Shown here piece after piece: positions 2,003 through 16,229 of a stretch of 32,642 bases of DNA; positions within the stretch are counted from its first letter, which is position 1; each line of letters starts with the position of its first letter. The DNA is from an uncultured virus (IMG/VR IMGVR_UViG_3300032323_001292) (taxonomy: Duplodnaviria; Heunggongvirae; Uroviricota; Caudoviricetes): IMG/VR virus record IMGVR_UViG_3300032323_001292. One strand, given 5' to 3'. The notes below the pieces were generated by a model. It was given only the letters and a program-made list of their open reading frames with translations, was not told the origin of the DNA and made no database searches. The position numbers were made by a program, and so were the translations under genes.

Positions 2003-3480
2003 AAATTATTTACCTAGGAGCAGATGTTCCCAGTAATAGAACCATTCTCGAAGAAGCAGGGGTTTTAGAAGTAGGGGTTAGTTATTGGAGATTAGTTAAA
2101 AGAGGGCTTCCTAAAAACAAAGATTACCTATTCTCAACATACTTTGATAATAGTATGAGGATACATCTACATGCAGGCGTTCCAAAGGGACTGCAGCTGA
2201 GCTCAGCTGAGCTAGAGCAATTTGCAGCTGATTATGAGACCTTTGTAGCTAATAATATCGACCGTATTGATAGTTTTACCGAGTTTGACCACCCACTATT
2301 AACGACTGATTTCGTAGACCAACAAAGAAAAACTTGTTGGTCTCAAGTTCCTGAAGGTAAGTTCTGGGTTGTATGGGATGACTCCACTGGCACGGATGGA
2401 TTAAGAAAACTAGCGGACAACTATCTAAATGTTGCCATAACTGGTGAGGATATAGAAAACCACCATTATTTAGCCGCTTTGACTAAGTCGATATCTTTCA
2501 ATCAAGAGACTAGATTCCATGCTTTAGCGTGCGCTAAGCCTGATAACCTACGCCAAGTTACTTTGGAAACAGCCAGCACTATGTCATGGCTATCGCCAAT
2601 GATGAATGGGGAAACAATCGTTTGGGACGGTACTAAATTAGTTAGATACCCAAAAAGAATGAAGGAACAAGCGCGTTCAAGATATCGCCACGTCTATGAG
2701 AAAGCAGGCTTAGACTTCGATAAGATTATTACAGACGACCTAAAAGAGATTAGTAAGTTGGCTTTGTGGTCATACCAACAATTGGAGTTTAGATTAAATA
2801 TGATTCACAATAAGCCAGATGATTCTTCTTATAATGATAATAGTGAGGAAATAGTATTCGGTTCTAATGTGGAAATGTACCCACCAGATAGTGATAATAA
2901 GGGTACTCCGATGCGGAAACTTGAACGCAGAAATCCAGCTGAAATGACTAATTTACCCGTCTTTGGTTACGAATTTAAAACCGTAATTGAACAAGATGAA
3001 GACGGAAATGATGTAATAAAAGATGTTCCAGTAGTTAAATCTAACCAAGGTTCGTTAAGAATGTGTGATACCTGCTTTGTTGCAGCCAATTGCCCAGCCT
3101 TCAAGCCGCAGAACCAATGTGCTTTTAACTTACCTGTTGAAGTTAAAACTAAAGACCAATTAAAGGCTTTAATCAATGCAATAGTAGAAATGCAGGGTCA
3201 AAGAGTGGCTTTTGCTCGTTTTTCTGAAGAAATTAACGGTGGATACCCAGACCCTAACGTTTCCCAAGAGATAGATAGGTTATTTAAACTATTAAAGACA
3301 GTTAAAGAATTAGATGATTCTTCATCTTTTATTAAGTTATCAGTAGAAGGACGAGCCGCAGGTGCAGGTGTATTGTCTTCTATTTTTGGTGATAAAGCAC
3401 AAGCATTAAGAGAAATGCCTAATGGCGGATTCGATGCCAACACAACCAATCAGATAATTAAAGGCGTAATCGAAGAATAA
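1999..3480 (+). CDS. Divergent TGT (queuine tRNA-ribosyltransferase)-like barrel fused to a Cys-rich/helical C-terminal domain
   Basis: MKIIYLG start and RFHALA...LRQVTLETASTMSWL...G resemble the H-G-x-G...S-x-D-S-x-S-W region of phage TGT-like proteins. C-terminal CDTC-x5-CP-x7-C motif. Confidence 0.45.
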   Translation: MKIIYLGADVPSNRTILEEAGVLEVGVSYWRLVKRGLPKNKDYLFSTYFDNSMRIHLHAGVPKGLQLSSAELEQFAADYETFVANNIDRIDSFTEFDHPLLTTDFVDQQRKTCWSQVPEGKFWVVWDDSTGTDGLRKLADNYLNVAITGEDIENHHYLAALTKSISFNQETRFHALACAKPDNLRQVTLETASTMSWLSPMMNGETIVWDGTKLVRYPKRMKEQARSRYRHVYEKAGLDFDKIITDDLKEISKLALWSYQQLEFRLNMIHNKPDDSSYNDNSEEIVFGSNVEMYPPDSDNKGTPMRKLERRNPAEMTNLPVFGYEFKTVIEQDEDGNDVIKDVPVVKSNQGSLRMCDTCFVAANCPAFKPQNQCAFNLPVEVKTKDQLKALINAIVEMQGQRVAFARFSEEINGGYPDPNVSQEIDRLFKLLKTVKELDDSSSFIKLSVEGRAAGAGVLSSIFGDKAQALREMPNGGFDANTTNQIIKGVIEE

Positions 3481-3632: not shown

Positions 3633-5651
3633 ATGGCTTTTTCGTTCAAATTAGCAGAAGATTTTGTAGCAGGTTACAAGGATAAAAAAGTACCTTGGGG
3701 TTATCAAGATGCAGGTGGCAACTCAGTTGGGGAAATAACTTTTCTTAGAACTTACTCCAGATTAAAGGCTGATGGAACTAAAGAGACATGGGTTGATGTA
3801 TGCGAGCGTGTAATCAATGGCATGTACTCCATACAAAAAGATTGGTGCAAAACCAGCAGACTTCCATGGAACGATTCTAAAGGTCAGGCTTCAGCAAAAG
3901 AAGCATTTGACAGATTATTTAACTTAAAGTGGACTCCACCGGGTCGTGGGCTTTGGGTAATGGGAACTCCTATTGTTAATGAACAACGCAACTCTGCCGC
4001 GTTACAAAATTGTTCATTTGTTTCAACAGCCTCTATGACTAAACTAGACCCTGCTAAACCATTTGCATTTCTAATGGAAGCATCCATGCTTGGTGTGGGT
4101 GTTGGATTTGATGATAAGGGTGCAGATAAAGACTTCACCATTTATGAACCAAAAGACGAAGAAGTATATGTCATTCCAGATACCCGCGAAGGATGGGTTG
4201 AATGCACAAGTGCTTTAATCAATTCTTACTTAAAACCAGACCAATCTAAACTAACATTTGACTATTCTCAAATAAGACCAGCAGGCGCACCCATTAAAAC
4301 CTTCGGAGGCACAGCAGCTGGGCCCGAACCGTTAATGCGTTTACATAACGCAATCTCGGTAATATTCGCTAATCGTGCAGGTTCTAAACTAACAAGAGTT
4401 GATATTGCAGACATTGGTAATCTAATAGGAGTTTGTGTTGTATCAGGAAACGTACGCCGTTCTGCTGAGCTGTTGCTTGGTCGCTTGGATGATAAAGATT
4501 TCCTTAATCTAAAGAACCCAGAAGTATATCCACAAAGAAACTCATACGATACAAAGAATCCTGGTTGGGCTTGGATGTCTAACAACTCCGTAGAAGTTGC
4601 CGTAGGAGATGACCTATCTAATATTATCGAGGGCATTGCATTAAATGGTGAGCCGGGCGTTATATGGATGGATGTAACCCGTAAATACGGGAGACTTATT
4701 GACCCACCTAATAACAAAGACCATCGCGCAGCAGGTTACAACCCATGTGCAGAACAATCACTTGAGTCATTCGAGTGTTGTACTCTCGTTGAAACATACT
4801 TAAACAGACATGACAGCCTAGAAGATTTCAAGAGAACATTGAAGTTTGCTTTCTTATACGCTAAGACAGTTACGCTTATCCCTACCCATTGGGAAGAAAC
4901 TAATGCAATCATGCAACGCAATCGTCGCATTGGTACTTCTATTTCAGGTATTGCTAACTTCGCTGACAGAGTTGGCTTACCAGTATTGCGTGAGTGGATG
5001 GAATCAGGCTACTCAACAGTTCAATACTATGACCATGTGTATTCTGAATGGTTTGGTATTAGAGAGTCAATAAAATTAACAACAGTTAAGCCATCAGGAA
5101 CAGTATCAATCCTTGCAGGAGAATCTCCCGGGGTACATTGGACTCCCGGTGGTCAATACTTCTTACGCTCTATTAGATTTGCTAATGAAGACCCTATGTT
5201 ACCTCTCTTTAAGTTTGCTAATTACAGGGTAGAGCCTGCTAGTGAATCACCAAAAACAACTTCAGTTGTATTCTTCCCAGTTGAATCAAGCGCCTCTCGT
5301 TCTGAGAAAGATGTTTCTATCTATGAAAAAGTATCACTCGCAGCGATGGCTCAAAGACATTGGTCAGACAACTCAGTATCAGTAACAGTATCCTTTAACA
5401 AGGATAAAGAAAAAGATGCCGTAGGCACAGTTCTGCACATGTTTGATGGGCAACTCAAAACCGTTTCCTTTTTACCTATGGGGAACGAGACTTACCCACA
5501 AATGCCATACACACAGATAACTAAAGATGAATATGAAAAGTATAAATACGAACTAATGCCAATAGATTTTACAGGCGTGTATGCAGGGATGGCAGCAGAC
5601 GCAATCGGTGAGAAGTATTGCTCTACTGATTTTTGTGAGATTCCAAAGTAA
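3633..5651 (+). CDS. nrdJ: Class II (adenosylcobalamin-dependent) monomeric ribonucleoside-triphosphate reductase
   Basis: RTYSR, PPGRGLW, NCSF, GNVRRSA, NPCAEQSL, TTVKPSGT and a C-terminal redox pair CSTDFC. AGGAGA RBS. Confidence 0.95.
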   Translation: MAFSFKLAEDFVAGYKDKKVPWGYQDAGGNSVGEITFLRTYSRLKADGTKETWVDVCERVINGMYSIQKDWCKTSRLPWNDSKGQASAKEAFDRLFNLKWTPPGRGLWVMGTPIVNEQRNSAALQNCSFVSTASMTKLDPAKPFAFLMEASMLGVGVGFDDKGADKDFTIYEPKDEEVYVIPDTREGWVECTSALINSYLKPDQSKLTFDYSQIRPAGAPIKTFGGTAAGPEPLMRLHNAISVIFANRAGSKLTRVDIADIGNLIGVCVVSGNVRRSAELLLGRLDDKDFLNLKNPEVYPQRNSYDTKNPGWAWMSNNSVEVAVGDDLSNIIEGIALNGEPGVIWMDVTRKYGRLIDPPNNKDHRAAGYNPCAEQSLESFECCTLVETYLNRHDSLEDFKRTLKFAFLYAKTVTLIPTHWEETNAIMQRNRRIGTSISGIANFADRVGLPVLREWMESGYSTVQYYDHVYSEWFGIRESIKLTTVKPSGTVSILAGESPGVHWTPGGQYFLRSIRFANEDPMLPLFKFANYRVEPASESPKTTSVVFFPVESSASRSEKDVSIYEKVSLAAMAQRHWSDNSVSVTVSFNKDKEKDAVGTVLHMFDGQLKTVSFLPMGNETYPQMPYTQITKDEYEKYKYELMPIDFTGVYAGMAADAIGEKYCSTDFCEIPK

Positions 5652-5660
5652 TATAAACTA

Positions 5661-5700
5661 AAGAAGCCCCTAGTTTTAACGACTAGGGGCTTTTATTATT
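5661..5700. terminator. Bidirectional intrinsic terminator between convergent genes
   Basis: AAGCCCCTAGT (5664-5674) / ACTAGGGGCTT (5682-5692) stem with A-rich and T-rich flanks. Confidence 0.85.
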
Positions 5701-6451
5701 TTTGGTGCTTAAACTTAAACGGATTGTTCCAAGCGTCTATGCCTTTGAAGTATCGTCTACCTCTTTGCCCTGTTTTTGCGTAATGGGATTTATCAACTGT
5801 ATCTCTTATGTGTTCCCATTGAGCATGGCTTAGTTGCTCGAAGTTTATTATCTTTTTATCATATAACTCATCGGCATGTTTAAGCGCAAAGTTGTCAGCG
5901 TATCCTCTTGGTATTGGCAGTAAGGCTGAGATAGGAGTGCCTTTGGGTATTACTATTTCACTTGGCTCATTTATCATCAGGTTCATAGTAAAGTCAAACT
6001 GTAAGTTATCTGTTTCTACTACCCCATTTAATACTGTTAATCCTGTTGGCAAAATAAAATTAGGTGGGGCTACTATCATCAAATTAACTAATGGTGGAGT
6101 TCTTAAAACAAAAGGTAATCTAAAGTTAATAACATTGGGCTGAGGACTATTAGAAACATGGATACCATTTCTACTTGGGTTACTTTCTTGGAAGGTTAAA
6201 GGCTTTTTTCCGTCCCAGTTAATAGTTATATCACTTGTGCTTTGGATAATAAAACCATATTGATTGGCTATAACCATTGGAAGACAGAAGTACGCAGCCT
6301 CACTAAACCAGGCTCTCTGCTTTTCTCCCTGTAAGGTCTTTATTATCTTGTTAATATCATCTTTACTTACACCAAGTTTGGGTACTATTACAATCGTATT
6401 ATCAGGAATAAGGTTATCGTCGTCGTTAATTCTAAGGTTAGCTTCAAACAT
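5696..6451 (-). CDS. DUF6065-like beta-rich protein
   Basis: AYFCLPMVIANQYG, LRTPPLVNLM, GVVETD, FTMN and IPKGTPISALLPIPR are motifs I associate with DUF6065-type phage proteins. Confidence 0.6.
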   Translation of the reverse strand: MFEANLRINDDDNLIPDNTIVIVPKLGVSKDDINKIIKTLQGEKQRAWFSEAAYFCLPMVIANQYGFIIQSTSDITINWDGKKPLTFQESNPSRNGIHVSNSPQPNVINFRLPFVLRTPPLVNLMIVAPPNFILPTGLTVLNGVVETDNLQFDFTMNLMINEPSEIVIPKGTPISALLPIPRGYADNFALKHADELYDKKIINFEQLSHAQWEHIRDTVDKSHYAKTGQRGRRYFKGIDAWNNPFKFKHQK

Positions 6452-6623
6452 TACACTTGTGATACTTCATGTAGCGAGATACAACTACCTCTCTCCACTT
6501 TAATATCTCTCCTTGATAATCTAACTCTAATAATGGAGCGCTAGGCTTTCTGAACACTTGGGTATCCCCACATTTCTTACAGGTTTTAAGTCTTACATAT
6601 CTTGCTTCTAGTTTGGTTTTCAT
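6444..6623 (-). CDS. Small Cys/His protein (not in ORF track)
   Basis: Manual translation, 59 aa: MKTKLEARYVRLKTCKKCGDTQ...YHKCNV*. It fills the gap and overlaps both neighbours. Confidence 0.6.
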   Translation of the reverse strand: MKTKLEARYVRLKTCKKCGDTQVFRKPSAPLLELDYQGEILKWREVVVSRYMKYHKCNV

Positions 6624-6910
6624 CTGCTACTTATTGTCCAAAATATAAAACTAAAAGATAAAGATAATCCTAATCCCATTAAAATATAATAAAGGTTCAT
6701 ATCTATGCCTCTGCTTTTATGTTTTTTTTCATTTCTATCGTATCTACCTTTATACTCTCTCCATACGGAATCTATATAAGAATCAATGTCCTGTTGTTTT
6801 ACTTTTTTTTTATCTTTATGCTCTGCCAACCCATAGGCTGTCCACCCTGCTAAGAAACTTGCTACTCCTACGAGTAATACTACGGCTAAGTAATCGCCCC
6901 AATAGAACAT
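6620..6910 (-). CDS. Small membrane protein
   Basis: Hydrophobic N- and C-terminal segments, GGAG RBS. Confidence 0.6.
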   Translation of the reverse strand: MFYWGDYLAVVLLVGVASFLAGWTAYGLAEHKDKKKVKQQDIDSYIDSVWREYKGRYDRNEKKHKSRGIDMNLYYILMGLGLSLSFSFIFWTISSR

Positions 6911-6912
6911 TA

Positions 6913-7449
6913 TTATCTCCTCTGTGTGTGTGTAATAAAAGGTGGTGCACTAAAAACATTATTCTTACATGCAATCTGCATCGCTTTTCTCCATGTCGCC
7001 CCTGCTTGTAATGCGCCTATTGCATACGGCGAACCACTACCTATTCCATATAAGCCGTCATCTCTCATCATTACTGATAGAGAATCGTCTAACTCAAAGA
7101 TAGTTCCTTGAATTGCTATTAAGAATAAGAAATCTGGCTCGTTACTATTCTCTTTATCTGGAATATAACCATTAGCATTTAACGCTTCTCTAATAGAGGG
7201 CACTACTTCTGATATAACAAAGTGGTATAAATCTTTCTTAGCATTAGTAGGTATTGCTGGTGGTTTCCATACATGCTGGACAATATCGCATGGCTGAGTT
7301 AATCCCGAACCTGCGATTAGATACTTACCTCTTTTGGTAATCTTACTGACAATAGGGTGAGAATAGGTACGACCACCATCGTCGGTTGTACGAGAGTCTG
7401 CGATTAGCAAACAATGGTCTGGTTTCTGCAACCCTATTATCGTGGTCAT
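6913..7449 (-). CDS. Ntn-hydrolase (proteasome beta/HslV-like) peptidase
   Basis: N-terminal MTTI (Thr nucleophile), IADSR, KI, IAGSG and IGSGSPYAIGAL. Confidence 0.85.
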   Translation of the reverse strand: MTTIIGLQKPDHCLLIADSRTTDDGGRTYSHPIVSKITKRGKYLIAGSGLTQPCDIVQHVWKPPAIPTNAKKDLYHFVISEVVPSIREALNANGYIPDKENSNEPDFLFLIAIQGTIFELDDSLSVMMRDDGLYGIGSGSPYAIGALQAGATWRKAMQIACKNNVFSAPPFITHTQRR

Positions 7450-7623
7450 TTATTTACGCTTCCTGCGTCTCTTTACCCAATAGACTACCATTACTGCTCC
7501 TGCTATCAGTAATGCGCCGAACCATGAAATATCAAATCCTATTACATTTTCTATGTAAAGTGATAGCCACCAATCTTGGATTACTAAATCAAAAAAAGGT
7601 GCGCCGTATAGTGTGTCTTCCAT
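7450..7623 (-). CDS. Small membrane protein (not in ORF track)
   Basis: Manual translation, 57 aa: MEDTLYGAPFFDLV...FGALLIAGAVMVVYWVKRRRKRK*. It abuts both neighbours. Confidence 0.65.
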   Translation of the reverse strand: MEDTLYGAPFFDLVIQDWWLSLYIENVIGFDISWFGALLIAGAVMVVYWVKRRRKRK

Positions 7624-7802
7624 TACTCAACTTCCTTAATATCATCTTCATCTCTATATACATATAAGTCTGGGCTTTGTCTCTCTACCCATTTATCAAC
7701 AGGGGTTGCACATGCTTTCTCAAAGGCTTCCTCTGTGTCTTTGGCTTCTACTTTTATCGTGTAGTAATGAGTTTGCTCTGCATTAACTTCATACTGAGGC
7801 AT
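7623..7802 (-). CDS. Hypothetical protein (MPQYEV...VEAKDTEEA)
   Basis: VEA.D.EEA pattern common in small phage early proteins. The start is probably the MPQY Met rather than 7817. Confidence 0.6.
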   Translation of the reverse strand: MPQYEVNAEQTHYYTIKVEAKDTEEAFEKACATPVDKWVERQSPDLYVYRDEDDIKEVE

Positions 7803-8004
7803 GGCTATCCACATCATCAGCGATTAGATTAGTTAATAGTTGGTCATAGCCTTGATTATCAGCCTTTTCACATACTTCACGCCATATTTGCTCTGATATT
7901 TCTTGGTCATGCAACTGATAATCGCTTTTATGATGAAGCGATACGATAATCTCATCATCATCTTTGTATTTATTTAATTGCTCTTTTAGTTCTTTTACTT
8001 TCAT
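7789..8004 (-). CDS. Hypothetical protein (MKVKELKEQL family)
   Basis: 71-aa ORF with a common phage N-terminal motif. Confidence 0.7.
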   Translation of the reverse strand: MKVKELKEQLNKYKDDDEIIVSLHHKSDYQLHDQEISEQIWREVCEKADNQGYDQLLTNLIADDVDSHASV

Positions 8005-8018
8005 TGTTTTTATCTCTC

Positions 8019-8309
8019 TTATCTCTTTATCTCTTGGTGTAACAACTCGCTGTCGCCTGCTACCCTGTGGTTTTGTAGTTCTACTATCTTTGCTTCTGCT
8101 TCTGCTTCTGTCAAGTTTTCATGCCACTCTGGTTCTTGGTAATTCATATACTCAACCTCATGGCTTATGTCATATCTATCGCTTAATGCTTTGTAATAGA
8201 CATACATGGCTGAGTATTGGTCGATAATAATAATAGGCTTAAACACCCCTGAATCAAAAGGGTCATCTGCGCTGGCAAAAGTTTGTGTTGTTTGTGTTGG
8301 AGTATCCAT
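8019..8309 (-). CDS. Hypothetical acidic protein
   Basis: 96-aa ORF abutting the upstream gene. Confidence 0.65.
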   Translation of the reverse strand: MDTPTQTTQTFASADDPFDSGVFKPIIIIDQYSAMYVYYKALSDRYDISHEVEYMNYQEPEWHENLTEAEAEAKIVELQNHRVAGDSELLHQEIKR

Positions 8310-8501
8310 TTATTTCTTTCCCTTTCTTTTAATAGTCTTGTTATTGGTTTCTTGTATTGCTTTCATGGTTCTATAGAAGCGCATGAAATCTTGGTGTTCC
8401 CTTGATATGTATTTAGTCTTTTCATCTCTATCGAATATCAAGACTAATAATGAACCTATTATTATCATGAAAGTTGCAATCATAAATAAATTACTAATCA
8501 T
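8310..8501 (-). CDS. Small membrane-anchored protein
   Basis: N-terminal hydrophobic helix, basic tail, GGAAGGA RBS. Confidence 0.65.
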   Translation of the reverse strand: MISNLFMIATFMIIIGSLLVLIFDRDEKTKYISREHQDFMRFYRTMKAIQETNNKTIKRKGKK

Positions 8502-8527
8502 TTGTTTTCCTTCCCTAACTTATAGAG

Positions 8528-8576
8528 CCTGACTATCGGCTGGCGAAAGGACAAGTAACTCCAACCGATAATCAGG
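8528..8576 (-). promoter_or_regulatory. Intergenic RNA hairpin with an anti-RBS loop (candidate antisense regulator or processing site)
   Basis: 16-bp stem with two G.U pairs that work only on the - strand, a 17-nt loop AGUUACUUGUCCUUUCG, and no U-tract. Confidence 0.6.
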
Positions 8577-8587
8577 GGCTTGGTTAT

Positions 8588-10795
8588 CTAGGAAGCCCTA
8601 GATACTTCTTTTATTCGTTCTTTTACAATCATAGTTGCTACTTTTAACAAGTCCTTTGGAGTATCAACTGCATTGAATAGAGTGCAGTTGTGCTTAACGA
8701 ACTTCTGCAACTCCCTTTCCTCTTTAGCGTCATGCTTTGCAAGTCTTATTCTATTTTGGATATATTCTGTTTGACCATAATATACAAGGCTTGATATAAC
8801 TCCTGAGTCGTTCATGCTTTGTATTGTTAAGTTACAAGTAGTATCGTTTGACCAATAGCCGTCAGTAACTACAAGTAACAATCTTGTTTGTCTTTTACTT
8901 TTAACTAATATCTGCTCGGCTAATCTAAGAGCCTCAGTAGGGTCGGTGCAACCACTAGATTCTACTGCACGAAAGGCATTGGTAGCCTTTTCATGCTTCT
9001 CGTATAATTTTCTAGCAGTTCCATTGAAAGTTAATACTGTTACATCACCCTGTATTTTCTCGATACCACGCTTCATAGCCCATGTTGCTTGGCATACTTC
9101 TTGCATGGAGTTCATCATTGAACCTGAGTTATCTAATAGGATTACTGCTTCAATATCACATGCGTCTGACCCCTCACTCCATTTATCAAATAAAGTATCA
9201 AGGCTGTTAATATCACGCTTCATGGCTCGTTGGATATTTAATCTGCCACTTGGAGTTTCTTGTTCCCACATTGGGTCTAAGTCGGTTCTTAGTCGTTCTA
9301 ATTCATTACCGAACTTAGTTGCCATAGATGAGTAAGAGGTGTTTGGAAGCGCTTTGTAGTGGTTTGCTTTGCGTAATGGATTCCTAACGCTATCCTCATT
9401 AGCAATAGACTTACGAATATCCTTATTCTTTTGTTTGACATCACTATTAGATACTAATTCACTCATGCGCTTATTTATTTCACTAATAGCGTTGTCACTT
9501 AACTTAGAGTTCTTAGTCTTATTGCGTTGTTCATTACTATCAGTATTATTATTAGAGTCATTATCAGTATTGTTATCAGGGCTATTACCATTATCAGTAT
9601 CAGTATTGTCGCTTTCTGTTGGTAATTGTAATTCGTCACTTTCGCCTGTTGGAGTTGCGTAGTCTTGTTCCTTTTGACCTATTGGGCGACCCTTACCATT
9701 GAAAGGTTGGTTACTGCACCCTACTGCTTCCTTTTGGGCGTTACCTTGAGGTAGTGCTACATATTTACTGAACTTCTCGATAATATCCATACCCTTTTGA
9801 TAATCGCGTGGATAAGATAACAAGCGATATTCATTAACAAGGTTGGCAATATCCTGCATTATTTCTGCTGTCAATACTTGTTTGTGTTGATTAACAATTT
9901 CTTGACGAATATCAAGGCTGATATATTTAGCACCATAGACTCTGGCAAACAATTCTGGTCTAAGACTAACAAGCCCATTAGTGTTTAACACATGGCGATA
10001 AAAGGTTGATTCAATAAAAGGCTTGGTACTTGGATACATGGCTATCAGTTTAGTTTCTATTCTTATGTCCTCTAATAACTGACAAGTTGCTAGATATTGC
10101 TTTTCCATTACCCATTTAGCAAACTTTGTATTTACTCTAGGTGAGAATAAGATATGGGCTAACTCATGATAGTTAATACCATTTAATACTGTTAATGCTT
10201 CGTCAGTAAGATTGGTAATATCATCAAGTACGGCTTTATTAAGGCTGATAATCTTGCCGTCTGTCCATGCTGGATTAGGTTTATCAGGTTCATTAACTAC
10301 CTTGACATCTATTGTCTCACTAGATAGCACACTATCAGCCTTAGCATATACGGCTGTTAATGAATCTATCTTGGAAGTAGTATCAGATTGGAATTGTCTG
10401 AACTCTTGTATTTTAATTTCTCGGTCTTGTTCATCTTTCCAATTTAATTCTTGAACTTCGTTATGAATACTATCAAGCCTGTTTATCATCTCTGATAATA
10501 CTTTCATAGTATTAGCCTTGTAATCATCAGACATTAAGTTGGTGTAATCAACTTCTAATAGAGTTCCGTAAGAGTCGTCTCTAACCCTTTCTATTGCCCA
10601 AAGAGATATATGTCTAATAGGAGTTTCAAGTATTTTAGTAAAATCATTAGTTATTTCTACTAAGAATAACTTTACTGTGTCCTCATCTATTACATCACTA
10701 TCTAATAAGTCTGCATTTCTATAAAAGTAATTGTGCTTACTTCCATAGCCGTCGTCATGCCAATTTCTTAATACTTTATCTGTCAAGGCTGACAT
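8588..10795 (-). CDS. Metallopeptidase-like + von Willebrand factor A domain protein (MoxR/CobT-type partner)
   Basis: YHELAH (HExxH) plus LEDIRIE, an N/D/S/T low-complexity linker, and MIDAS residues DNSGS, T and VVTDG. Confidence 0.85.
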   Translation of the reverse strand: MSALTDKVLRNWHDDGYGSKHNYFYRNADLLDSDVIDEDTVKLFLVEITNDFTKILETPIRHISLWAIERVRDDSYGTLLEVDYTNLMSDDYKANTMKVLSEMINRLDSIHNEVQELNWKDEQDREIKIQEFRQFQSDTTSKIDSLTAVYAKADSVLSSETIDVKVVNEPDKPNPAWTDGKIISLNKAVLDDITNLTDEALTVLNGINYHELAHILFSPRVNTKFAKWVMEKQYLATCQLLEDIRIETKLIAMYPSTKPFIESTFYRHVLNTNGLVSLRPELFARVYGAKYISLDIRQEIVNQHKQVLTAEIMQDIANLVNEYRLLSYPRDYQKGMDIIEKFSKYVALPQGNAQKEAVGCSNQPFNGKGRPIGQKEQDYATPTGESDELQLPTESDNTDTDNGNSPDNNTDNDSNNNTDSNEQRNKTKNSKLSDNAISEINKRMSELVSNSDVKQKNKDIRKSIANEDSVRNPLRKANHYKALPNTSYSSMATKFGNELERLRTDLDPMWEQETPSGRLNIQRAMKRDINSLDTLFDKWSEGSDACDIEAVILLDNSGSMMNSMQEVCQATWAMKRGIEKIQGDVTVLTFNGTARKLYEKHEKATNAFRAVESSGCTDPTEALRLAEQILVKSKRQTRLLLVVTDGYWSNDTTCNLTIQSMNDSGVISSLVYYGQTEYIQNRIRLAKHDAKEERELQKFVKHNCTLFNAVDTPKDLLKVATMIVKERIKEVSRAS

Positions 10796-12141
10796 TATAG
10801 GTTCACTTCACTTTCAGTAACAACCTTGTTAGTTGCAGGTGCTAGGTCAGTAACAAGATTGGCTTTGTGAGTTTCCATAACTAACTTAACTGCTTGGCGT
10901 TCATGTTCAGCAAATCCATTTACGAAACAATAAGTTGCGTAATCAAGTCCTAAGTTATTAGCATTGTTAATGAACGATACTAACTTACGAGTTGATATTG
11001 GAGTTTCGATTGCTTCCTTATCAAACTCATCTCGGAGTTGATTAGCAAGGTTGATAAGAGCAGGGCTTTTAACTAACTTGGTTTCAATAGCCTTGTCATA
11101 AGGGAACTCGATTATATGGTGGAATCTATCTTTCCATGCTTGGTTCATTGGTCGAGTACCACGATAGTTAGGGTTCATATCAGCGATTACTAATAACTCA
11201 TTATGAGCCTTGATAACTTCGCCGTTATTATCCATGAGTTGTATTTCTCGTCTAGCGTCTAGTAGTCCGAACAATACTGTAGTTACTCGTTCTGGCATAA
11301 AATTAACTTCGTTCAGTAATAATACGCCACCATTACGAACTAACTCGGTTACTGCGCCGTCTTGCCAACGGAAGTGTCCGTCTGGGGTTGGAATCCATTT
11401 ACCGAATAGTTGGCTTGCTTCTAATCCAATATGAGATGAGACATTGTAATATCTATGTCCTCTGGCACTTGCGTATGCCAATACTGACATTGTCTTACCT
11501 GACCCTGCATGTCCCTCTAATAGGATATTTTCATGGTTACGCATGGCATTGTCATATACCTCAAACTCGGTGAGGTTATTAACTAACTTGCGAGTAATGT
11601 AATCTCGACTCCATTTCATATCTGGAATCGTTGCCATTTCCATAGAATAACTATGCTGTTTTTCTGGGGCTTGTATATCTACATTAACTACCCTATTAGT
11701 TACTTCCTGTTCATAAGGAATAGGTCTAAGGATAATAGGATTGTTCCTACGATTGTCAGTAACTAGATTGTTAAGAGTCTCGTCGGCTGACTTTAATCTA
11801 TCTACTAATTCTTGGACTAACTTATCGTGTGGTTGTGATAGTCCTAATACTGTTCCATGAGTCTCATTGGCTCTAATAGCCTTGACACCTAGAGTAGATA
11901 CATTGTTTCTTGATAAGGCTTCTATATCCCTATCGGTCAAGATAACTGCAATAGGGCTTTTAGTCACTACACTTTCAGGCATATCTAACTGAGTTGTTAC
12001 CTGCCATAGATAGCGACCTTGTGGATTAGATAAATCTAATTGTCGGGCGAATATCTTTACTTCTGTTGGAGTCGGGGTAATCAAGGTCTGATTAACTAGA
12101 CTATCTGTCTCATTACTTTCTACATAGATACCTATGCTCAT
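10795..12141 (-). CDS. MoxR/CbbQ/CobS-type AAA+ ATPase with N-terminal extension
   Basis: Walker A GHAGSGKT, WQDG, Walker B-like VLLLNEVN, MNPNYRGTRPMNQAWKDRF and ISTR. Coupled to the VWA gene. Confidence 0.9.
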   Translation of the reverse strand: MSIGIYVESNETDSLVNQTLITPTPTEVKIFARQLDLSNPQGRYLWQVTTQLDMPESVVTKSPIAVILTDRDIEALSRNNVSTLGVKAIRANETHGTVLGLSQPHDKLVQELVDRLKSADETLNNLVTDNRRNNPIILRPIPYEQEVTNRVVNVDIQAPEKQHSYSMEMATIPDMKWSRDYITRKLVNNLTEFEVYDNAMRNHENILLEGHAGSGKTMSVLAYASARGHRYYNVSSHIGLEASQLFGKWIPTPDGHFRWQDGAVTELVRNGGVLLLNEVNFMPERVTTVLFGLLDARREIQLMDNNGEVIKAHNELLVIADMNPNYRGTRPMNQAWKDRFHHIIEFPYDKAIETKLVKSPALINLANQLRDEFDKEAIETPISTRKLVSFINNANNLGLDYATYCFVNGFAEHERQAVKLVMETHKANLVTDLAPATNKVVTESEVNL

Positions 12142-12516
12142 GCTTTGTCCCTTGCTTGGTCATGGCTTGTCCCATGATAGTTCGAGCGTAATGGATAACT
12201 TCTAATAAGACAAGTCGGGGGAAGCCTATAAAGGTCACAGTTCGATAACAATTACCACGCCCCAAGTCGGGGGATTACTGATGAAGCATAAGAGCCTTAT
12301 TAACCATATATAGAGGGATAGTCTATATCTCTATCCTGTTATTGTTGCAGACCTGCTGTTATCACTATAACTAGCCTGACAGTATGTCAAAAATCTGGTC
12401 GTAGTCCTACGGACTCGCTATCAGGGCTGACAGTAGCCGATAATAGGATAGTTAGTGGGCTACTCTCTCCTCTCTCATTACCATAGGTGCTCTCTCTTTT
12501 CAATAGAGTTGGCAGA

Positions 12517-12536
12517 ATTGTTATAGAATCGTTATA
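12517..12536 (-). promoter_or_regulatory. Tandem RTAACRAT box, copy 1
   Basis: The - strand reads ATAACGAT-TCT-ATAACAAT, with TTGAAA at 12503-12498 downstream. Confidence 0.7.
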
Positions 12537-12545
12537 AAGCGCAGA

Positions 12546-12641
12546 TGTTTGTGTTGGCAAGCTGCGCTTGCCAAATCAGCAGCCCAAAGGGCTTCATTAA
12601 AGGGTGGGTATATTAAATATAAGGGTGGGTCAACACAAACA
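12546..12641. repeat. GTTTGTGTTG-terminated inverted-repeat element, copy 1 (degenerate interior)
   Basis: TGTTTGTGTTG (12546-12556) and CAACACAAACA (12631-12641). The interior has small hairpins and two AAGGGTGGGT copies. Confidence 0.8.
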
Positions 12642-12680
12642 AAATGCCCCACAAGCCAGCGTTAACCGACCTGTGAGGCA
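12641..12680 (-). terminator. Intrinsic terminator
   Basis: The - strand reads TGCCTCACAGGTCGG-TTAACG-CTGGCTTGTGGGGCA-TTTTGTTT, with G.U pairs on the - strand. Confidence 0.75.
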
Positions 12681-12700
12681 CAATTAAATAACAAGCTTGA

Positions 12701-12985
12701 TTACCAAGCACTATATAAATCAACTGCTATTTCTACCTTGAATAGTGTTACCTCTACATGTAAGTTTATCCAACTACCATACTTCTTTGCATTGATATCA
12801 ACCCCAAACCATTTTTCTGGTTTTTGTGTTACACCTAAACTTGCGTCAAAACCAATAGAAAAGGTATTTGTTATATTTATGCCCATGTCAAAGCCATTCA
12901 TATAACGATAACTATCCTTTTCTATGTTAAACCAATCGTTTAATGGTCTTACCCATACCAAAGGTTCGTCTTTTACTACTGTCAT
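12701..12985 (-). CDS. Hypothetical protein
   Basis: 94-aa ORF, AAGGAG RBS. Confidence 0.7.
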   Translation of the reverse strand: MTVVKDEPLVWVRPLNDWFNIEKDSYRYMNGFDMGINITNTFSIGFDASLGVTQKPEKWFGVDINAKKYGSWINLHVEVTLFKVEIAVDLYSAW

Positions 12986-13077
12986 TTACTTGCTCCTTTT
13001 AATAGTTGTGTAACAAGGCTGGCAGTCGGTATGATTACCAGCCTTGTTGTATCTACCCTATTGTTTAGATAGGCTTA

Positions 13078-13275
13078 TTAGCAATCGCAGTTAGTGCAAT
13101 TGCATGAACTAACTAGCAGTTCATCGTGGGTACGACCTAAGTGGTCGCATGCTTCTAAAGGTAGTGACCAAGTATCTGACCACCCGAACTCCTTGACCTT
13201 TAGCGTTAATTGACCTTGTGGACTAATTTCTGCTAGATAATAGGATTGTCCGTTCTTAAATATATGCTGGCTCAT
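13078..13275 (-). CDS. Hypothetical protein with Cys-rich C-terminus
   Basis: 65-aa ORF coupled to the upstream gene. Confidence 0.65.
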   Translation of the reverse strand: MSQHIFKNGQSYYLAEISPQGQLTLKVKEFGWSDTWSLPLEACDHLGRTHDELLVSSCNCTNCDC

Positions 13276-13493
13276 CAGCGACCTACATATCTATCTTGTA
13301 AGTCTTTCTTTAGTAGAGTCCATTGGTCAGGGGTCATGCGTTGTACTTCTTCAATAGCCCCGATTAACAGTTCAACTGCATCTGTTTTCTTCCAGTATTG
13401 GTGTGTCTTGACATTGTCGATAACATTACCGAAGAACATAGCAACCACGTTCCTGTGTTGGTCAGTTGTCATTGTCATTGGCTTGGTCGTCAT
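13275..13493 (-). CDS. Hypothetical protein
   Basis: 72-aa ORF, GAAAGGGA RBS. Confidence 0.65.
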   Translation of the reverse strand: MTTKPMTMTTDQHRNVVAMFFGNVIDNVKTHQYWKKTDAVELLIGAIEEVQRMTPDQWTLLKKDLQDRYVGR

Positions 13494-13995
13494 TGTATTC
13501 CCTTTCTAGTATTGAGTAAGGTGTTAGTTCTGCGTTGCCCTTTAATCCCTCTGCCAGTAGTTCACTTGGCATACCTGATAGTAATGAGCCTATTACCATT
13601 ACTGCCATGCGTGGTATTCCACACTCGAATACCTCGTTAGCCATAATGATATTCATTAAGCATTTGATTGCTTCAACCTTTTGGTCTGCAACTACACATA
13701 ATAAGGCTGTTACACATAAAGCGTTGATGATGTCGTCACCAGCATTTTTTTGTGCTTCCTCAGCGTCTCCCTCATAAAGAGAGGCTGTCTGTATAATTGA
13801 CATAGCCAATTTGTTAGACCACTCATCTTTGTCACCAATACGACCTGCTTGACAAAGTAGTGCGTCTCTTAGGTTTATATCTGAAAAGCCTTTTAGTCTG
13901 TTTGGTAAGACAAGAGAATCCTCGTTGTCTAAGTCCATAAGACTAACTGCCGTACAGATTTCGTCGAACCTGTGCTTGCGTTCCTCTAATAACAT
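13462..13995 (-). CDS. Helical protein, possibly DUF4192-like
   Basis: DINLRDALL and MAVMVIGSLLSGMPSE recall the actinobacterial DUF4192 C-terminal half. Start moved to the ATG at 13995 because the GAAAGGAC RBS precedes it. Confidence 0.55.
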   Translation of the reverse strand: MLLEERKHRFDEICTAVSLMDLDNEDSLVLPNRLKGFSDINLRDALLCQAGRIGDKDEWSNKLAMSIIQTASLYEGDAEEAQKNAGDDIINALCVTALLCVVADQKVEAIKCLMNIIMANEVFECGIPRMAVMVIGSLLSGMPSELLAEGLKGNAELTPYSILEREYNDDQANDNDN

Positions 13996-14022
13996 ATTGC
14001 GTCCTTTCGGGTAGATGTAATT

Positions 14023-14085
14023 ACCTTGCCCTATATCTGGGGAAGTTGTCAATAGGGCAAGATAAATTGTTATCTAATTGTTACC
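14023..14085 (-). promoter_or_regulatory. Tandem RTAACRAT box (copy 2) with TTGACA promoter
   Basis: The - strand reads GTAACAAT-TAG-ATAACAAT (14084-14066), then TTGACA (14052-14047), 18 bp, CAAGGT. A CTTGCCCTAT/ATAGGGCAAG inverted repeat brackets the -35. Confidence 0.7.
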
Positions 14086-14566
14086 AACTAGATTGGTATA
14101 TATAAGTGGTCATGCCATCATCAACACTATTCTCTAATAGTCTTGTTATGTCGTCATGAGTTTGTTGTATATCTCCGAAATACCACTCATTTATCTCGGT
14201 GTTACCAAAGAAGAAGCCTGCTGTTGGTTCTAACAGGTTTGGTTGTTTGGTATCTAATACCTTTTTACAAAGGTCGCGTAACTCCTCTAGTTGGATACGG
14301 CTAACGCTATATTGCTCGCAGTTATCCTTACCACCTTGAACATTACGAACGAACCACCCATGCACAGCATTGACTTTGCGCCAATACACTACAGGGATGT
14401 CCACTTGGATACCAACAAAGCCGTCTTGTTCTACTATGTCCTGAACGCCTAATACGTCAATAACCTTGTTAAAGGTTTCGTTGTCAGGATAGGTATTACC
14501 AACTGCCTTGCTCATCTCTTTTCTTGGTACATATCTGCGTGCAGATAAATACATATCTAACCCCAT
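14081..14566 (-). CDS. Conserved phage protein of unknown function (MGLDMYL / YWRK / GFFFG family)
   Basis: MGLDMYL, YWRKVNAVHGWF, DNC, GFFFG and a terminal YQSSW. GAAAGGACAAGT RBS. Confidence 0.8.
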   Translation of the reverse strand: MGLDMYLSARRYVPRKEMSKAVGNTYPDNETFNKVIDVLGVQDIVEQDGFVGIQVDIPVVYWRKVNAVHGWFVRNVQGGKDNCEQYSVSRIQLEELRDLCKKVLDTKQPNLLEPTAGFFFGNTEINEWYFGDIQQTHDDITRLLENSVDDGMTTYIYQSSW

Positions 14567-14605
14567 ACTTGTCCTTTCTCTTACATAGTCGGGCTTGATA
14601 CCTCT

Positions 14606-14655
14606 AGCATATACTCTCTTTCTCTTAATCCAATAGACGTTACCAAATCGTTACA
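14606..14655 (-). promoter_or_regulatory. Tandem RTAACRAT box (copy 3) plus -10 element
   Basis: GTAACGAT-TTG-GTAAC (14654-14639), 27 bp, then TATGCT (14611-14606). Confidence 0.75.
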
Positions 14656-14673
14656 ATCGCGTGCAATAGGCTT

Positions 14674-14735
14674 GTTTGTGTTGGAGGCTATATGGCTAAA
14701 TAGCTACAGCCTGCCATATAGCCTCCAACACAAAC
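14674..14735. repeat. GTTTGTGTTGG palindromic element, copy 2 (perfect 23-bp arms, 16-nt spacer)
   Basis: GTTTGTGTTGGAGGCTATATGGC (14674-14696) is the exact reverse complement of 14713-14735. Confidence 0.95.
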
Positions 14736-14744
14736 TATCTTGTT

Positions 14745-14790
14745 AAAATAAAAAAGCCCCCACCGATTAAGGTGAGGGCTAATTTTTTAT
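14745..14790 (-). terminator. Intrinsic terminator (possibly bidirectional)
   Basis: The - strand reads AGCCCTCACC-TTAATC-GGTGGGGGCT-TTTTTATTTT. Confidence 0.85.
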
Positions 14791-14954
14791 TAAGCGTTTT
14801 CAAGTTCACTTAAGTATGAGTAACAGATACGGATTGCGTCATCTGGTCCTTCACACTCACGGATTTCCTTTTCGAACGCGTCTGTACTTTTACCTGCTCG
14901 TCTGTACTGTTTATAAACGTCAGCCATAACGTAGCGTGGGTCTAAGTCAAACAT
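14790..14954 (-). CDS. Hypothetical protein (not in ORF track)
   Basis: Manual translation, 54 aa: MFDLDPRYVMADVYKQYRRAG...YLSELENA*. GAAAGGACAAG RBS. Confidence 0.75.
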   Translation of the reverse strand: MFDLDPRYVMADVYKQYRRAGKSTDAFEKEIRECEGPDDAIRICYSYLSELENA

Positions 14955-15013
14955 GTCTTGTCCTTTCTAATAGGGTTGTTAGGTAGGGGGCGCTTTCACG
15001 CCCCCCGATTGCA

Positions 15014-16006: not shown

Positions 16007-16054
16007 GAGATGTGTCCTTTCTATGATGTAACACCGTGTTACTCTCATGTATTA

Positions 16055-16104
16055 AGTATGTCAGTCTTAGTACTCTCATTTGAAGATGTTATCGAATCGT
16101 TATA
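16055..16104 (-). promoter_or_regulatory. Tandem RTAACRAT box (copy 4) plus -10 element
   Basis: ATAACGAT-TCG-ATAAC (16103-16088), 27 bp, then CATACT (16060-16055). Confidence 0.7.
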
Positions 16105-16115
16105 ATTGCCCCGTA

Positions 16116-16189
16116 TGTTTGTGTTGGGGCTATGGGGCTGTGGGCAAATGCTTTAACAGCAGCCCAGCCCCATAGCCCCAACACAAACA
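16116..16189. repeat. GTTTGTGTTGG palindromic element, copy 3 (perfect 25-bp arms, 24-nt spacer)
   Basis: TGTTTGTGTTGGGGCTATGGGGCTG (16116-16140) is the exact reverse complement of 16165-16189. Confidence 0.95.
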
Positions 16190-16214: not shown

Positions 16215-16229
16215 CAATGTTTTCCGGGG

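Follow-up and report, generated by a model that had tools for sequence, protein, structure and literature searches.

Gene timing in phages is usually ascribed to promoters, sigma factors and protein repressors. An RNA directed at ribosome-binding regions is known from phages P1 and P7, where the c4 antisense RNA is carried in the same transcript as its targets and pairs with their ribosome-binding region through its loops; c4 is a processed two-loop RNA located upstream of these targets. Among hosts, 6C, CcsR ('cuckoo') and RsaE are free-standing sRNA genes with C-rich anti-Shine-Dalgarno (anti-SD) loops, each with several purine-rich ribosome-binding sites as targets.

Here we describe a hairpin in the window, that is, the whole stretch of 32,642 nucleotides of uncultured-virus DNA that was analysed. 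The hairpin is probably this lake phage's copy of a widespread, uncatalogued 3'-trailer anti-leader RNA of an AAA + VWA gene pair, pairing with leaders. Unlike c4, it consists of one hairpin located in a 3' trailer, and its predicted partners belong to other transcription units. It resembles 6C, CcsR and RsaE in its pyrimidine-rich anti-SD loop and in being complementary to several ribosome-binding sites, and differs from them in that it is encoded by a phage within a 3' trailer, mixes U and C, is extended in a lineage-specific way and has no Rfam match.

Two described cases place the anti-SD downstream in the message itself. In the icaR mRNA of Staphylococcus aureus, an anti-SD in the 3'-UTR was reported to pair with the SD, which stops initiation and yields an RNase III substrate (Ruiz de los Mozos et al., 2013; PMC3868564). 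In Bacillus subtilis, aSD-like sequences hundreds of nt downstream were reported to pair with the RBS in vivo, to inhibit translation and to promote decay (Gill et al., 2025, preprint; PMC12697547); in that account they were synthetic 8-mers, such sequences being depleted from natural genes. As reported for icaR, the phage anti-SD lies in a 3' trailer, and in 12 relatives it is predicted to pair with the leader of the gene that it follows. Unlike in that report, a strong hairpin directly behind the stop codon displays the motif in its open loop, and the complement of 9-13 nt reaches past the SD. The element, carried by phages, is conserved even between very distant ones, and its best predicted partners in the window are other genes. 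With the B. subtilis sequences (PMC12697547) it shares a pyrimidine-rich stretch located far downstream and complementary to an RBS, the pairing being a predicted one here; it differs from the sequences described there in being positively conserved, hairpin-displayed and extended to specific leaders.

Structure, strand and position of the hairpin

The hairpin and its neighbouring features are located in the window as follows:

8528-8576, - strand: RNA hairpin, with the 5' arm at 8576-8561, a 17-nt loop at 8560-8544 and the 3' arm at 8543-8528
8544-8560, - strand: candidate anti-leader/anti-SD loop, AGUUACUUGUCCUUUCG, whose 15-nt core GUUACUUGUCCUUUC is found again in other phages, on stems unrelated to this one
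8585-8604, - strand: small 8-bp hairpin spanning the VWA gene's TAG stop (8590-8588)
8588-10795, - strand: VWA (CobT-like) gene, 735 aa, with the hairpin as its 3' trailer
10795-12141, - strand: MoxR/CobS-like AAA+ gene, 448 aa (Pfam AAA_5; phrog_249 at 2e-47)
12145-12153, - strand: AAA-gene leader, at the start of the operon itself (AAGGGACAA; nine predicted pairs with the loop, including one G.U, -11.3 kcal/mol)
8310-8501, - strand: 63-aa ORF starting 27 nt past the hairpin, with a leader that is a poor partner of the loop (-11.2 kcal/mol)

The VWA start overlaps the AAA gene by one base, and the two genes were therefore taken as one operon. The 735-aa protein has a Pfam VWA_2 match at residues 551-646 and is 23-31% identical (tblastn) to 'CobT-like' proteins of Gordonia and Brevibacterium phages. 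We also weighed, and rejected, a role as the Y RNA of a Ro-like VWA protein, as no TROVE domain and no Y-RNA-like features of the hairpin were found.

The hairpin lies 12 nt past the VWA stop and occurs as a single copy within the window. Its stem comprises 16 pairs between the arms CCUGAUUAUCGGUUGG (5') and CCAGCCGAUAGUCAGG (3'), and its loop combines the anti-SD UCCUUUC with an extension. The preliminary description of this locus had proposed a 16-bp stem displaying this loop on the - strand transcript, and refolding returned the same structure. Two of the stem pairs are U.G or G.U on the - strand and A-C mismatches on the + strand, which had been taken to favour an RNA of the - strand; the folding of 8490-8620 agreed, with -40.1 kcal/mol on the - strand (z -3.97, equalled by none of 200 shuffles) versus -29.8 on the + strand (z -1.08, equalled by 26 of 200). 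The two absences from which the locus had been taken to be neither a terminator nor a + strand RBS were also confirmed: the stem is followed by CUCUAUAAGUUAGGG, without a U-tract, and no start codon stands downstream of the + strand GAAAGGACAAG at the hairpin.

Intrinsic terminators consist of a G+C-rich stem, a short loop (about 3-8 nt) and a U run directly after it. The hairpin is like them in its strength and its place right behind a stop codon, and in the relative L173 a U-tract does follow; the 17-nt loop and the missing U-tract of the window hairpin are unlike them. A promoter and terminator scan of 5000-19000 did not list the hairpin, and the terminator-like sites that it did report on the - strand show 4-6-nt loops and U-rich tails. 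In this region, neither promoters (31 vs 40.4 in shuffles) nor terminators (9 vs 9.0) were in excess, and the scan listed no promoter-like site beside the hairpin. A T4-type PeSL cassette, in which an early promoter and a stem-loop are repeated between small genes, was rejected, as there is one copy and no adjoining promoter-like site.

The hairpin might still serve as structural punctuation, namely as a terminator without a U-tract, as a processing site for RNase III or another enzyme, or as a 3' stabiliser, with a loop that pairs with nothing. Its constant place right behind the stop codon fits this function, and so do the sequences that follow it elsewhere: the U-tract of L173, a canonical terminator in L283, L255 and L286, and a promoter-like TATAAT in L161 and L179, where the hairpin thus marks the end of a unit. 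We consider this improbable, given the unlikeness to the window's other - strand terminators and the fact that punctuation predicts a conserved stem with a free loop, the opposite of what is observed below; nor would it predict loops that co-vary with leaders 1.8-2.2 kb upstream.

Conservation of the loop on unrelated stems

The 15-nt loop core was found in hairpin loops of about 11 viral-contig groups with unrelated stems and GC contents of 0.36-0.65. Among 86 viral-contig matches to the 15-mer, 13 loci representing eight different stems have flanking stems of 10-16 pairs, and in three further viral groups the 15-mer is flanked by 8-9 pairs. Matches in cellular sequence served as the negative control for these stems: a stem of at least 10 pairs surrounded the 15-mer in none of the 120 matches listed from bacterial and archaeal genome contigs. 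In an ungapped alignment of seven unrelated stems, 94% of the cells pair as against 46.6% in shuffles (0 of 500), a statistic that is partly circular because these loci were picked for having stems, the comparison of viral with cellular matches being the independent control. All 12 pairs of this alignment are altered on both sides, and the 15 loop columns are invariant. The preliminary description had stated that a conserved stem with a changing loop would speak against its reading; the observed pattern is the reverse, with an identical loop in about 11 groups and wholly different stems.

On the strand that reads CUUGUCCUUUC, the stem is longer in nine of the 11 hairpin groups, equal in one and one pair shorter in one. 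Summed over these groups, 16 G.U pairs fall on this strand and 2 on the other, and they assign the predicted RNA to the strand of the gene. A GGA loop of the CsrA type in a + strand RNA was rejected on the same two observations, the G.U pairs and the stem lengths.

Directly behind a cobS/cobT-like AAA + VWA pair, the hairpin is found in the window and in four other groups. In the window, L161, L179/L199 and L193, the VWA gene follows the AAA gene and its stop is separated from the hairpin by 5-30 nt. The AAA proteins of L161, L179/L199 and L193 are 28-29% identical to that of the window, and the loop core is identical at 15 of 15 positions. In L218 a related AAA gene is present, and the hairpin is preceded by a 449-aa ORF without a match. 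The same loop also stands behind unrelated genes (L237, L157, L226 and L173). The loci L003 and L004 have no blastn similarity to the window and share merely two 18-residue tblastx pieces with it; they were retained rather than treated as chance 17-mer matches because an inverted repeat again flanks the same loop.

A loop that is constant on changing stems could also be a binding site for the ribosome or a protein, either by imitating the anti-SD tail of 16S rRNA or as the target of a phage RNA-binding protein (possibly the AAA/VWA pair), the match to leaders then being indirect. The loop holds a 7-nt core also present in the usual 16S 3' tail, and the association with one gene pair in five groups is in keeping with such a site. 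The occurrence behind unrelated genes in four loci argues against it, as do loops in two relatives, L253 and L251, that match leader bases wholly unlike the SD, and we regard such a site as having little probability.

Leaders complementary to the loop

Seven sites in the window are complementary to the loop:

14566-14578, - strand: leader and start of a 161-aa gene; the best partner, 13 nt (GAAAGGACAAGUA), -20.4 kcal/mol, identical in L419
14957-14967, - strand: leader of a 54-aa gene; 11 nt, -17.7 kcal/mol
17824-17834, - strand: 53-aa zinc-ribbon ORF; 11 nt (GGACAAGUAAC) directly past the ATG, the Pfam zinc-ribbon matches being weak
16994-17003, - strand: leader of an 87-aa gene; 10 nt, -16.1 kcal/mol
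16550-16559, - strand: leader of a 46-aa GTG ORF; 10 nt, -16.5 kcal/mol
16013-16021, - strand: leader of a DUF932 gene (SD-led ATG at 16006); 9 nt, -13.8 kcal/mol
14001-14009, - strand: leader of a 177-aa gene (ATG 13995); 9 nt, of which a C pairs with the loop's last G, -14.4 kcal/mol

These sites had been listed before, and all seven were recovered at the claimed lengths and at translation starts of the - strand, six within 25 nt 5' of a start codon and one right after the ATG; gene starts were fixed by a simple rule rather than by a gene caller. The - strand thus holds seven exact matches of at least 9 nt, compared with a mean of 1.21 (maximum 6) for shuffled loops, none of 200 reaching seven; part of every match comes free, because seven of the complementary bases are generic SD/anti-SD. 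The motif GAAAGGACAAG, with at most one mismatch, has five copies in the window against 0.66 expected (0 of 100 shuffles reached five). A comparison of the hairpin with start regions under shuffled controls, proposed in the preliminary description as a check, likewise favoured the pairing: for 25 curated - strand starts, the five best duplex energies averaged -17.2 kcal/mol versus -11.3 +/- 1.2 for shuffled loops (0 of 1000 as good). Energies of -14 kcal/mol or better were obtained for six of these 25 starts, all upstream of the operon, and none of 1000 shuffled loops did as well.

Most phages with the loop also carry leaders of the GAAAGGACAAG type. With at most one mismatch allowed, G004 has 15 copies (control 3), G005 has 13 (control 0) and G003 has 6 (control 2). 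One copy each in G004 and G005, on the opposite strand, is the hairpin loop itself, and the other copies examined lie 5' of start codons, mostly behind TATAAT boxes. Tags of 10-12 nt were also seen at starts in L237, L226 and L193, and the sequence at hand for the hairpin groups L157 (a 6.8-kb contig), L186 and L223 contained no tag of at least 10 nt. Loci with weak stems mostly have no tag on the same strand, and at most one.

Co-variation of loop and leader in relatives

Twelve relatives were collected through the AAA protein, without the loop as a criterion. They have a strong hairpin behind the VWA stop, with a loop sequence that varies between phages, and each loop was compared with the VWA leaders. 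The mean longest complement between a loop and its own VWA leader was 8.83 nt, as against 5.84 nt in cross pairs, and the mean duplex energy was -19.4 versus -11.9 kcal/mol, equalled in none of 20,000 permutations. The matches include leader-specific bases outside the SD, as in L253 (AAGAAUAGAA) and L251 (GGGAAUAGGAA); in L248 the complement is in two parts, and in L247 a U-A replaces a G-C. Among the 7-22 candidate starts of each locus, the VWA leader ranked first in 6 of 12 loci and within the top three in 10 of 12; in L246 it fell outside the best four partners. L252 has no comparable hairpin behind its VWA gene. An AT-rich AAA-VWA clade (L260-L291), screened with a simple and noisy hairpin picker, showed some loops resembling a plain anti-SD, which would be in line with the binding site considered above, and many loci without a clear hairpin; it was counted neither for nor against.

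In the 12 relatives, nearly every gene in the region has the tag as its leader, so that it is no private mark of a few genes. Because the leader is so widely shared, matches to many genes may be a by-product. This bears on a purely intramolecular autoregulation of the icaR type, in which the loop would target the leader of the AAA-VWA message that carries it, closing this message end to end and limiting the frequency of translation or setting the half-life, the other matches in the window being functionless. The relatives' loops, which follow an idiosyncratic VWA leader including its non-SD bases, speak for it, as does the AAA leader of L419/L420 (AAAGGACAA), which offers nine Watson-Crick pairs with the loop, and icaR provides a worked example of the mechanism (PMC3868564).

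The window itself departs from this rule of the own leader, because the leader of its operon is a mediocre partner of the loop: -11.3 kcal/mol compared with -14 to -20.4 for six others, and with a median of -12.8 over a heuristic set of 17 starts. Its VWA gene, moreover, has no leader of its own, since the start overlaps the AAA stop. A pair with a single partner would be free to drift, as in L248-L258, whereas the 15-nt loop is frozen across AAA proteins of 28-29% identity, and it is exactly these lineages that carry 4-15 tagged leaders. We therefore judge autoregulation as the sole function to be rather unlikely.

In the relatives, inverted copies of tag and loop stand at the two ends of the VWA gene, as they would if both were DNA sites of a regulator or recombinase flanking that gene. 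Such a DNA-level inverted repeat predicts neither a co-varying stem around one copy alone nor G.U pairs confined to the gene strand; the constant antisense orientation and the two-part complement of L248, with its unequal spacing, are equally unpredicted, and this origin is very improbable. By comparison, trans-acting anti-SD sRNAs are recognised by a seed that matches several ribosome-binding sites beyond chance and that is conserved or co-varies in relatives, and both properties were found here.

Transcript and database searches

Trans-acting anti-SD sRNAs are also marked by a discrete, abundant transcript. Here, one 151-nt contig from a polyA metatranscriptome covers 8506-8590, although it could be DNA carry-over and shows neither the ends nor the strand of an RNA. 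It is one of six short pieces of that library that match the window, and a second RNA library had no pieces matching the window. Megablast with 7800-9800 as the query found no match among named phages, and G001, the nearest record, has none to 8200-9000. Rfam returned no match at the gathering score for the whole window, and at E values up to 10 the region 8400-8700 gave four chance-level hits alone (snoRNA, CRISPR, RAGATH); c4 (RF01695) appeared at neither threshold. Among the papers listed in our searches of the published literature, none described such a phage element, none with the letters of the motif concerned phages, and none on phage cobT/cobS, von Willebrand and MoxR genes concerned a trailer hairpin.

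Proposed mechanism

The loop very probably pairs with messages and controls their translation, because the same loop recurs on different stems in unrelated phages. A functional pairing between loop and leader is well supported, since the loop is fixed where the stems differ, the G.U pairs are biased to one strand and the tags co-occur. In the proposed mechanism, the loop would be transcribed within the operon RNA of the - strand, and its large, open, pyrimidine-rich sequence would base-pair with the SD region and adjoining bases of GAAAGGACAAG leaders. This pairing would mask the ribosome-binding site and, in part of the leaders, the start codon as well, so that 30S subunits could not bind, and the message may be open to decay. 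In the window, the strong predicted partners are found in - strand units further upstream (17.8-14.0 kb); they number six to seven genes, which may be early genes, and the operon's own leader would pair weakly. The likeliest mode of action here is in trans on other messages, with the element still part of the operon RNA or present as a stable 3' fragment. In the relatives, the main partner would be the VWA gene's own leader, in a 5'-3' end pairing of one message.

The preliminary description had concluded that the hairpin is a multi-target antisense element. Its core, a functional pairing of loop and leaders, is well supported, with the qualification that the loops of the 12 relatives first of all track the VWA leader. 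That tracking points to an intramolecular or autoregulatory 5'-3' pairing and not solely to a regulon-wide effect in trans.

More tentatively, the loop and the GAAAGGACAAG leader might constitute a frozen 'address code', with the trailer hairpin silencing a tagged, promoter-proximal regulon in trans once the AAA-VWA operon is transcribed. Since a single loop would have to fit many leaders, neither side of such a code could change, which would account for the persistence of these 15 bases on unrelated stems, at 28-29% AAA identity and behind unrelated genes; even so, we hold it for a possibility rather than an expectation.

An anti-leader trailer RNA of this kind would represent a recurrent RNA device in many uncultured phages, a hairpin showing the complement of the phage's own ribosome-binding leaders, and it shows both of the comparative signs that speak most strongly for function, namely a loop that stays fixed where stems vary and co-variation of loop and leader. 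If the interpretation is correct, these phages have a compact, portable translational switch for their own message or for a set of messages, which would give a reason for their oddly long and invariant ribosome-binding leaders. Control from the 3'-UTR to the 5'-UTR, known from very few bacterial messages, would then extend to viruses. The element would further be a candidate for a new Rfam RNA family and a natural tag/anti-tag pair for synthetic biology.

Local conservation around the hairpin

A run of 75 nt (8583-8509) is identical in relatives that are about 87-89% identical to the window overall. The VWA proteins of these relatives are 74-82% identical, and the adjoining 40-nt bins reach 85-88%. 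The genome that contains this conserved island is a mosaic, and 8320-7680 is likewise about 99% identical. At the small hairpin (8585-8604), an arm and the loop are changed in L419-L421, with the folding retained.

Genomic setting of the hairpin

The uncultured phage originates from freshwater metagenomes. Of the 24 public sequencing runs listed, which were mostly labelled freshwater or lake, 19 contained at least half of a 3-kb stretch of it. A megablast search with 7800-9800 identified no named phage similar at the DNA level. The genes between 18.1 and 5.7 kb run on the - strand, and the hairpin lies in the 3' trailer of a cobS/cobT-like gene pair, with the following features:

12141-10795, - strand: MoxR/CobS-like AAA+ gene, 448 aa (Pfam AAA_5, phrog_249)
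10795-8588, - strand: gene with a C-terminal VWA domain, 735 aa, overlapping the AAA+ gene by one base
Spanning the VWA stop codon, - strand: smaller 8-pair hairpin (folding)
8576-8528, - strand: hairpin with a 16-pair stem and the 17-nt loop AGUUACUUGUCCUUUCG, 12 bases after the VWA-gene TAG
Starting 27 nt beyond the hairpin, - strand: 63-aa ORF (ORF coordinates)

Among named proteins, the VWA gene product was closest to 'CobT-like' proteins encoded by phages of Gordonia and Brevibacterium (23-31% identity). Auxiliary genes were also present, namely a queuine tRNA-ribosyltransferase-like gene (1999-3480, phrog_887), a ribonucleotide reductase gene (3633-5651, phrog_367) and an HslV-like peptidase gene (6913-7449, phrog_1040). 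The large + strand ORFs at 20620-22122 and 27415-28665 had no PHROG match.

Structure and conservation of the hairpin

The - strand fold gave a z score of -3.97, which none of 200 shuffles equalled, versus an ordinary -1.08 (26/200) for the + strand. The preliminary description, which had favoured a - strand RNA structure and had reported no U-tract after the stem, was borne out on both points, as no U-tract is present 3' of the stem. No Rfam family matched the window at gathering score, and a relaxed threshold gave chance-level matches only.

An exact search of viral contigs with the 17-nt loop recovered two contigs without DNA similarity to the window, in which the identical loop was closed by another stem, GGUGACUG/CAGUCACC. 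The 15-nt loop core gave 86 viral-contig matches; 13 of these loci, with eight different stems, carried flanking stems of 10-16 pairs, and three further groups had 8-9 pairs. Contig GC across the hairpin loci ranged from 0.36 to 0.65. As a control, bacterial and archaeal genomes were scanned with this 15-mer; none of the 120 matches listed had a 10-pair stem, and the longest stem comprised 9 pairs, of which three were G.U. When seven unrelated examples were aligned without gaps, all 15 loop columns were invariant, 94% of the stem cells paired versus 46.6% in shuffles (0/500), and all 12 stem pairs changed on both sides. Since these seven examples were chosen for having stems, the independent test is the contrast between viral and cellular matches. 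A pure punctuation role, as a terminator, an RNase III site or a stabiliser, would predict a conserved stem and a free loop; the reverse was observed, which makes this role unlikely.

The strand reading CUUGUCCUUUC had the longer stem in 9 of 11 groups, with one tie and one stem shorter by a single pair, and it carried 16 G.U pairs versus 2 on the opposite strand. Judged from these sequence asymmetries, the hairpin is an RNA structure of the gene strand. An inverted repeat acting at the DNA level is highly improbable, as it leaves unexplained the stem, the strand bias of the G.U pairs and the orientation of the loop, which is always antisense.

In metagenome contigs closely related to the window, with VWA proteins of 74-82% identity and 87% identical DNA overall, a run of 75 nt (8583-8509) that takes in the hairpin and its flanks was unchanged. 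The adjoining 40-nt bins were 85-88% identical, and identity fell to 60-70% at the VWA 3' end. The genome is mosaic and 8320-7680 is likewise ~99% identical in these relatives, so the 75-nt run is consistent with selection without proving it.

A separate group of ~12 AT-rich viral loci (L188, L167, L227, L224, L229, L200, L174, L217, L209, L191 and others) carried the 15-mer not in a loop but in a stem, where it forms the 3' arm opposite a tag-like 5' arm, GGAAAGGCAAGTAA, and is followed by GCTTTTTTG. Tag (the leader sequence complementary to the loop) and anti-tag are paired side by side.

Complementary leaders in the window and in unrelated loci

The seven loop-complementary sites of the preliminary description were all recovered at the lengths it had reported, and all lie at - strand translation starts. 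Exact loop matches of at least 9 nt numbered seven, versus a mean of 1.21 in 200 shuffled loops, none of which reached seven. Gene starts were defined by a simple Shine-Dalgarno (SD)-plus-ORF rule, and duplex energies were computed over 25 curated - strand starts. For six of the 25, the duplex energy with the loop was -14 kcal/mol or better, a result matched by none of 1000 shuffled loops. The best partner was the 161-aa gene at 14566 (-20.4 kcal/mol), where 13 nt extend into the AUG; this leader is identical in the close relative L419. All six strong partners are located upstream of the AAA-VWA operon, at 17.8-14.0 kb. Downstream of the hairpin, all nine genes were poor partners (-5.7 to -13.1 kcal/mol), and the operon's own leader, AAGGGACAA ahead of the AAA start, reached only -11.3 kcal/mol. 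In L419 and L420 the AAA leader is AAAGGACAA, which forms nine Watson-Crick pairs with the loop.

The tag was also found where the loop occurs in unrelated phages. Allowing at most one mismatch, GAAAGGACAAG occurred 15 times in G004, 13 times in G005 and six times in G003, the full records behind loci L154, L153 and L155, versus 3, 0 and 2 occurrences of the reversed-pattern control, respectively. In G004 and in G005 one copy is the hairpin loop itself, on the opposite strand; the other copies examined precede start codons by 2-5 nt, and most follow a TATAAT box at a distance of ~15 nt. Tags of 10-12 nt were also located at starts in L237, L226 and L193. The L237 loop ends in A where that of the window ends in G, and two of the three tags there begin with the matching U. 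Most weak-stem loci lacked a same-strand tag and the rest had a single one, and L157, L186 and L223 showed no tag of at least 10 nt in the DNA examined. A loop serving as a protein- or ribosome-binding site is quite unlikely, as such binding leaves loops that match non-SD leader bases unexplained.

In L153 and L154, nearly all small genes were individually equipped with a promoter-like box and with a short leader of stereotyped form, TATAATGNACTCAYCAACCNANAC-GAAAGGACAAG-NN-ATG, and L248-L258, relatives fetched through the AAA protein, shared the leader AACGACGAAAGGAC. These leaders are unusually long and invariant for ribosome-binding sites. L155 contained four to five copies of an intergenic module (~8170-9450, - strand), consisting of a small GC hairpin (CCGCCCGCGAGAGCGGGC) followed directly by GAAAGGACAAC and a start codon, which recalls stem-loop plus leader cassettes.

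Co-variation of loop and leader

The hairpin begins 5-30 nt past the stop of a VWA gene, itself preceded by an AAA gene, in the window, L161, L179/L199 and L193; L218 is arranged likewise, its hairpin being preceded by a related AAA gene and a 449-aa ORF without a match. The AAA proteins of these loci are only 28-29% identical to that of the window, and the loop core is nonetheless identical.

Further relatives were fetched by AAA protein alignment, without using the loop. In a clade with a ~600-aa VWA gene, a strong hairpin directly followed the VWA stop in 12 of 13 loci, the exception being L252. The loops, picked by a simple stem finder, were large, pyrimidine-rich and different between phages, and nearly all genes carried a long common leader, (A)ACGACGAAAGGAC(A). 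The loops best matched the leader of their own VWA gene, for example over 12 nt in L254, 11 nt in L245 and L251, and 10 nt in L247, L248 and L253. The L251 and L253 matches fall outside the SD (GGGAAUAGGAA, AAGAAUAGAA), the L248 match is in two parts, and in L247 a U-A pair replaces G-C. Across a 12 x 12 loop-leader matrix, own pairs averaged 8.83 nt and -19.4 kcal/mol versus 5.84 nt and -11.9 kcal/mol for cross pairs; none of 20,000 permutations equalled this, the 12 relatives being kin and not phylogenetically independent. For L249 and L257 the longest-ORF start was used instead of the SD-led start, which biases against the result. Among the 7-22 candidate starts per locus, the VWA leader was the top-ranked partner in 6 of the 12 loci and among the best three in 10. 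Since at least five distinct loop/leader classes were represented, the co-variation signal does not rest on a single inherited change.

In other AAA-VWA clades (L286 at ~4750-4800; L274, L279 and L273 after the VWA stop), some post-VWA loops resembled a plain ribosomal anti-SD; that of L286, UUUCCUCCUUUCG, is followed by a canonical terminator.

Proposed mechanism

The structure, conservation and co-variation all fit one mechanism, in which the trailer loop would base-pair with ribosome-binding leaders and hide the SD; leaders such as GAAAGGACAAGUAUG would also have part of the start codon covered. Two reports describe comparable pairing. In icaR mRNA, the SD is bound by the 3' UTR of the same message, so that initiation is blocked and a substrate for RNase III arises (PMC3868564), and in B. 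subtilis anti-SD-like sequences hundreds of nucleotides downstream pair with the ribosome-binding site in vivo, inhibiting translation and promoting decay (PMC12697547). By analogy, these cases support the plausibility of loop-leader pairing. Among the papers listed by literature searches, none described an element of this kind in a phage; the known kind of control to which it belongs is anti-SD pairing from a 3' trailer or a small RNA.

In the relatives, the partner would chiefly be the same message, forming an end-to-end lock that could restrict how often a completed message is translated. For the window, where the VWA gene lacks a separate leader, the operon leader is a weak partner and six other leaders are strong ones, action on other messages is favoured, as the preliminary description had proposed; the hairpin may act either from within the longer RNA or once processed out, to repress or to stabilise. 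At the single-partner loci (L248-L258) loop and leader drift together, whereas at loci with 4-15 tagged leaders (the window, G004, G005, L193 and L237) the 15 core bases have stayed fixed despite very deep divergence. From this contrast we infer a real multi-target constraint.

RNA trace and other features of the window

The sole RNA trace of the hairpin was a 151-nt contig from a lake metatranscriptome library (X20), which matches 8506-8590 with one difference and then diverges. It is one of six short contigs from this library that fell on 5600-18200, four of them on 7316-8590, which holds the hairpin and the small genes just downstream; such contigs cannot rank expression.

Two long inverted repeats, at 16107-16198 and 14665-14744, have arms of 34 and 32 nt that are 88% complementary and share the arm TTGTTTGTGTTGG(G/A)GGCTAT. 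Each lies upstream of a tagged gene; the former overlaps a terminator-like hairpin (16215-16192), and the latter is just downstream, on the - strand, of another (14780-14755). The L419 counterpart retains the arms, with a 14-nt insertion in the loop.

The 94-aa gene at 12701-12985 is missing from relatives: in DNA contigs from sequencing runs X6 and X9, 12680 is followed directly by 13047, and the L419 gap is identical. The stretch 12681-13047 is an optional gene cassette directly behind a terminator. Between the terminator-like hairpin at 12681-12644 and the AAA start, ~500 nt (12142-12640) contain no convincing ORF. A possible 20-codon upstream ORF in this region begins ATGGGACAAG and overlaps the AAA start, and a purine-rich run at ~12477-12487 forms a duplex of -17.8 kcal/mol with the hairpin loop.
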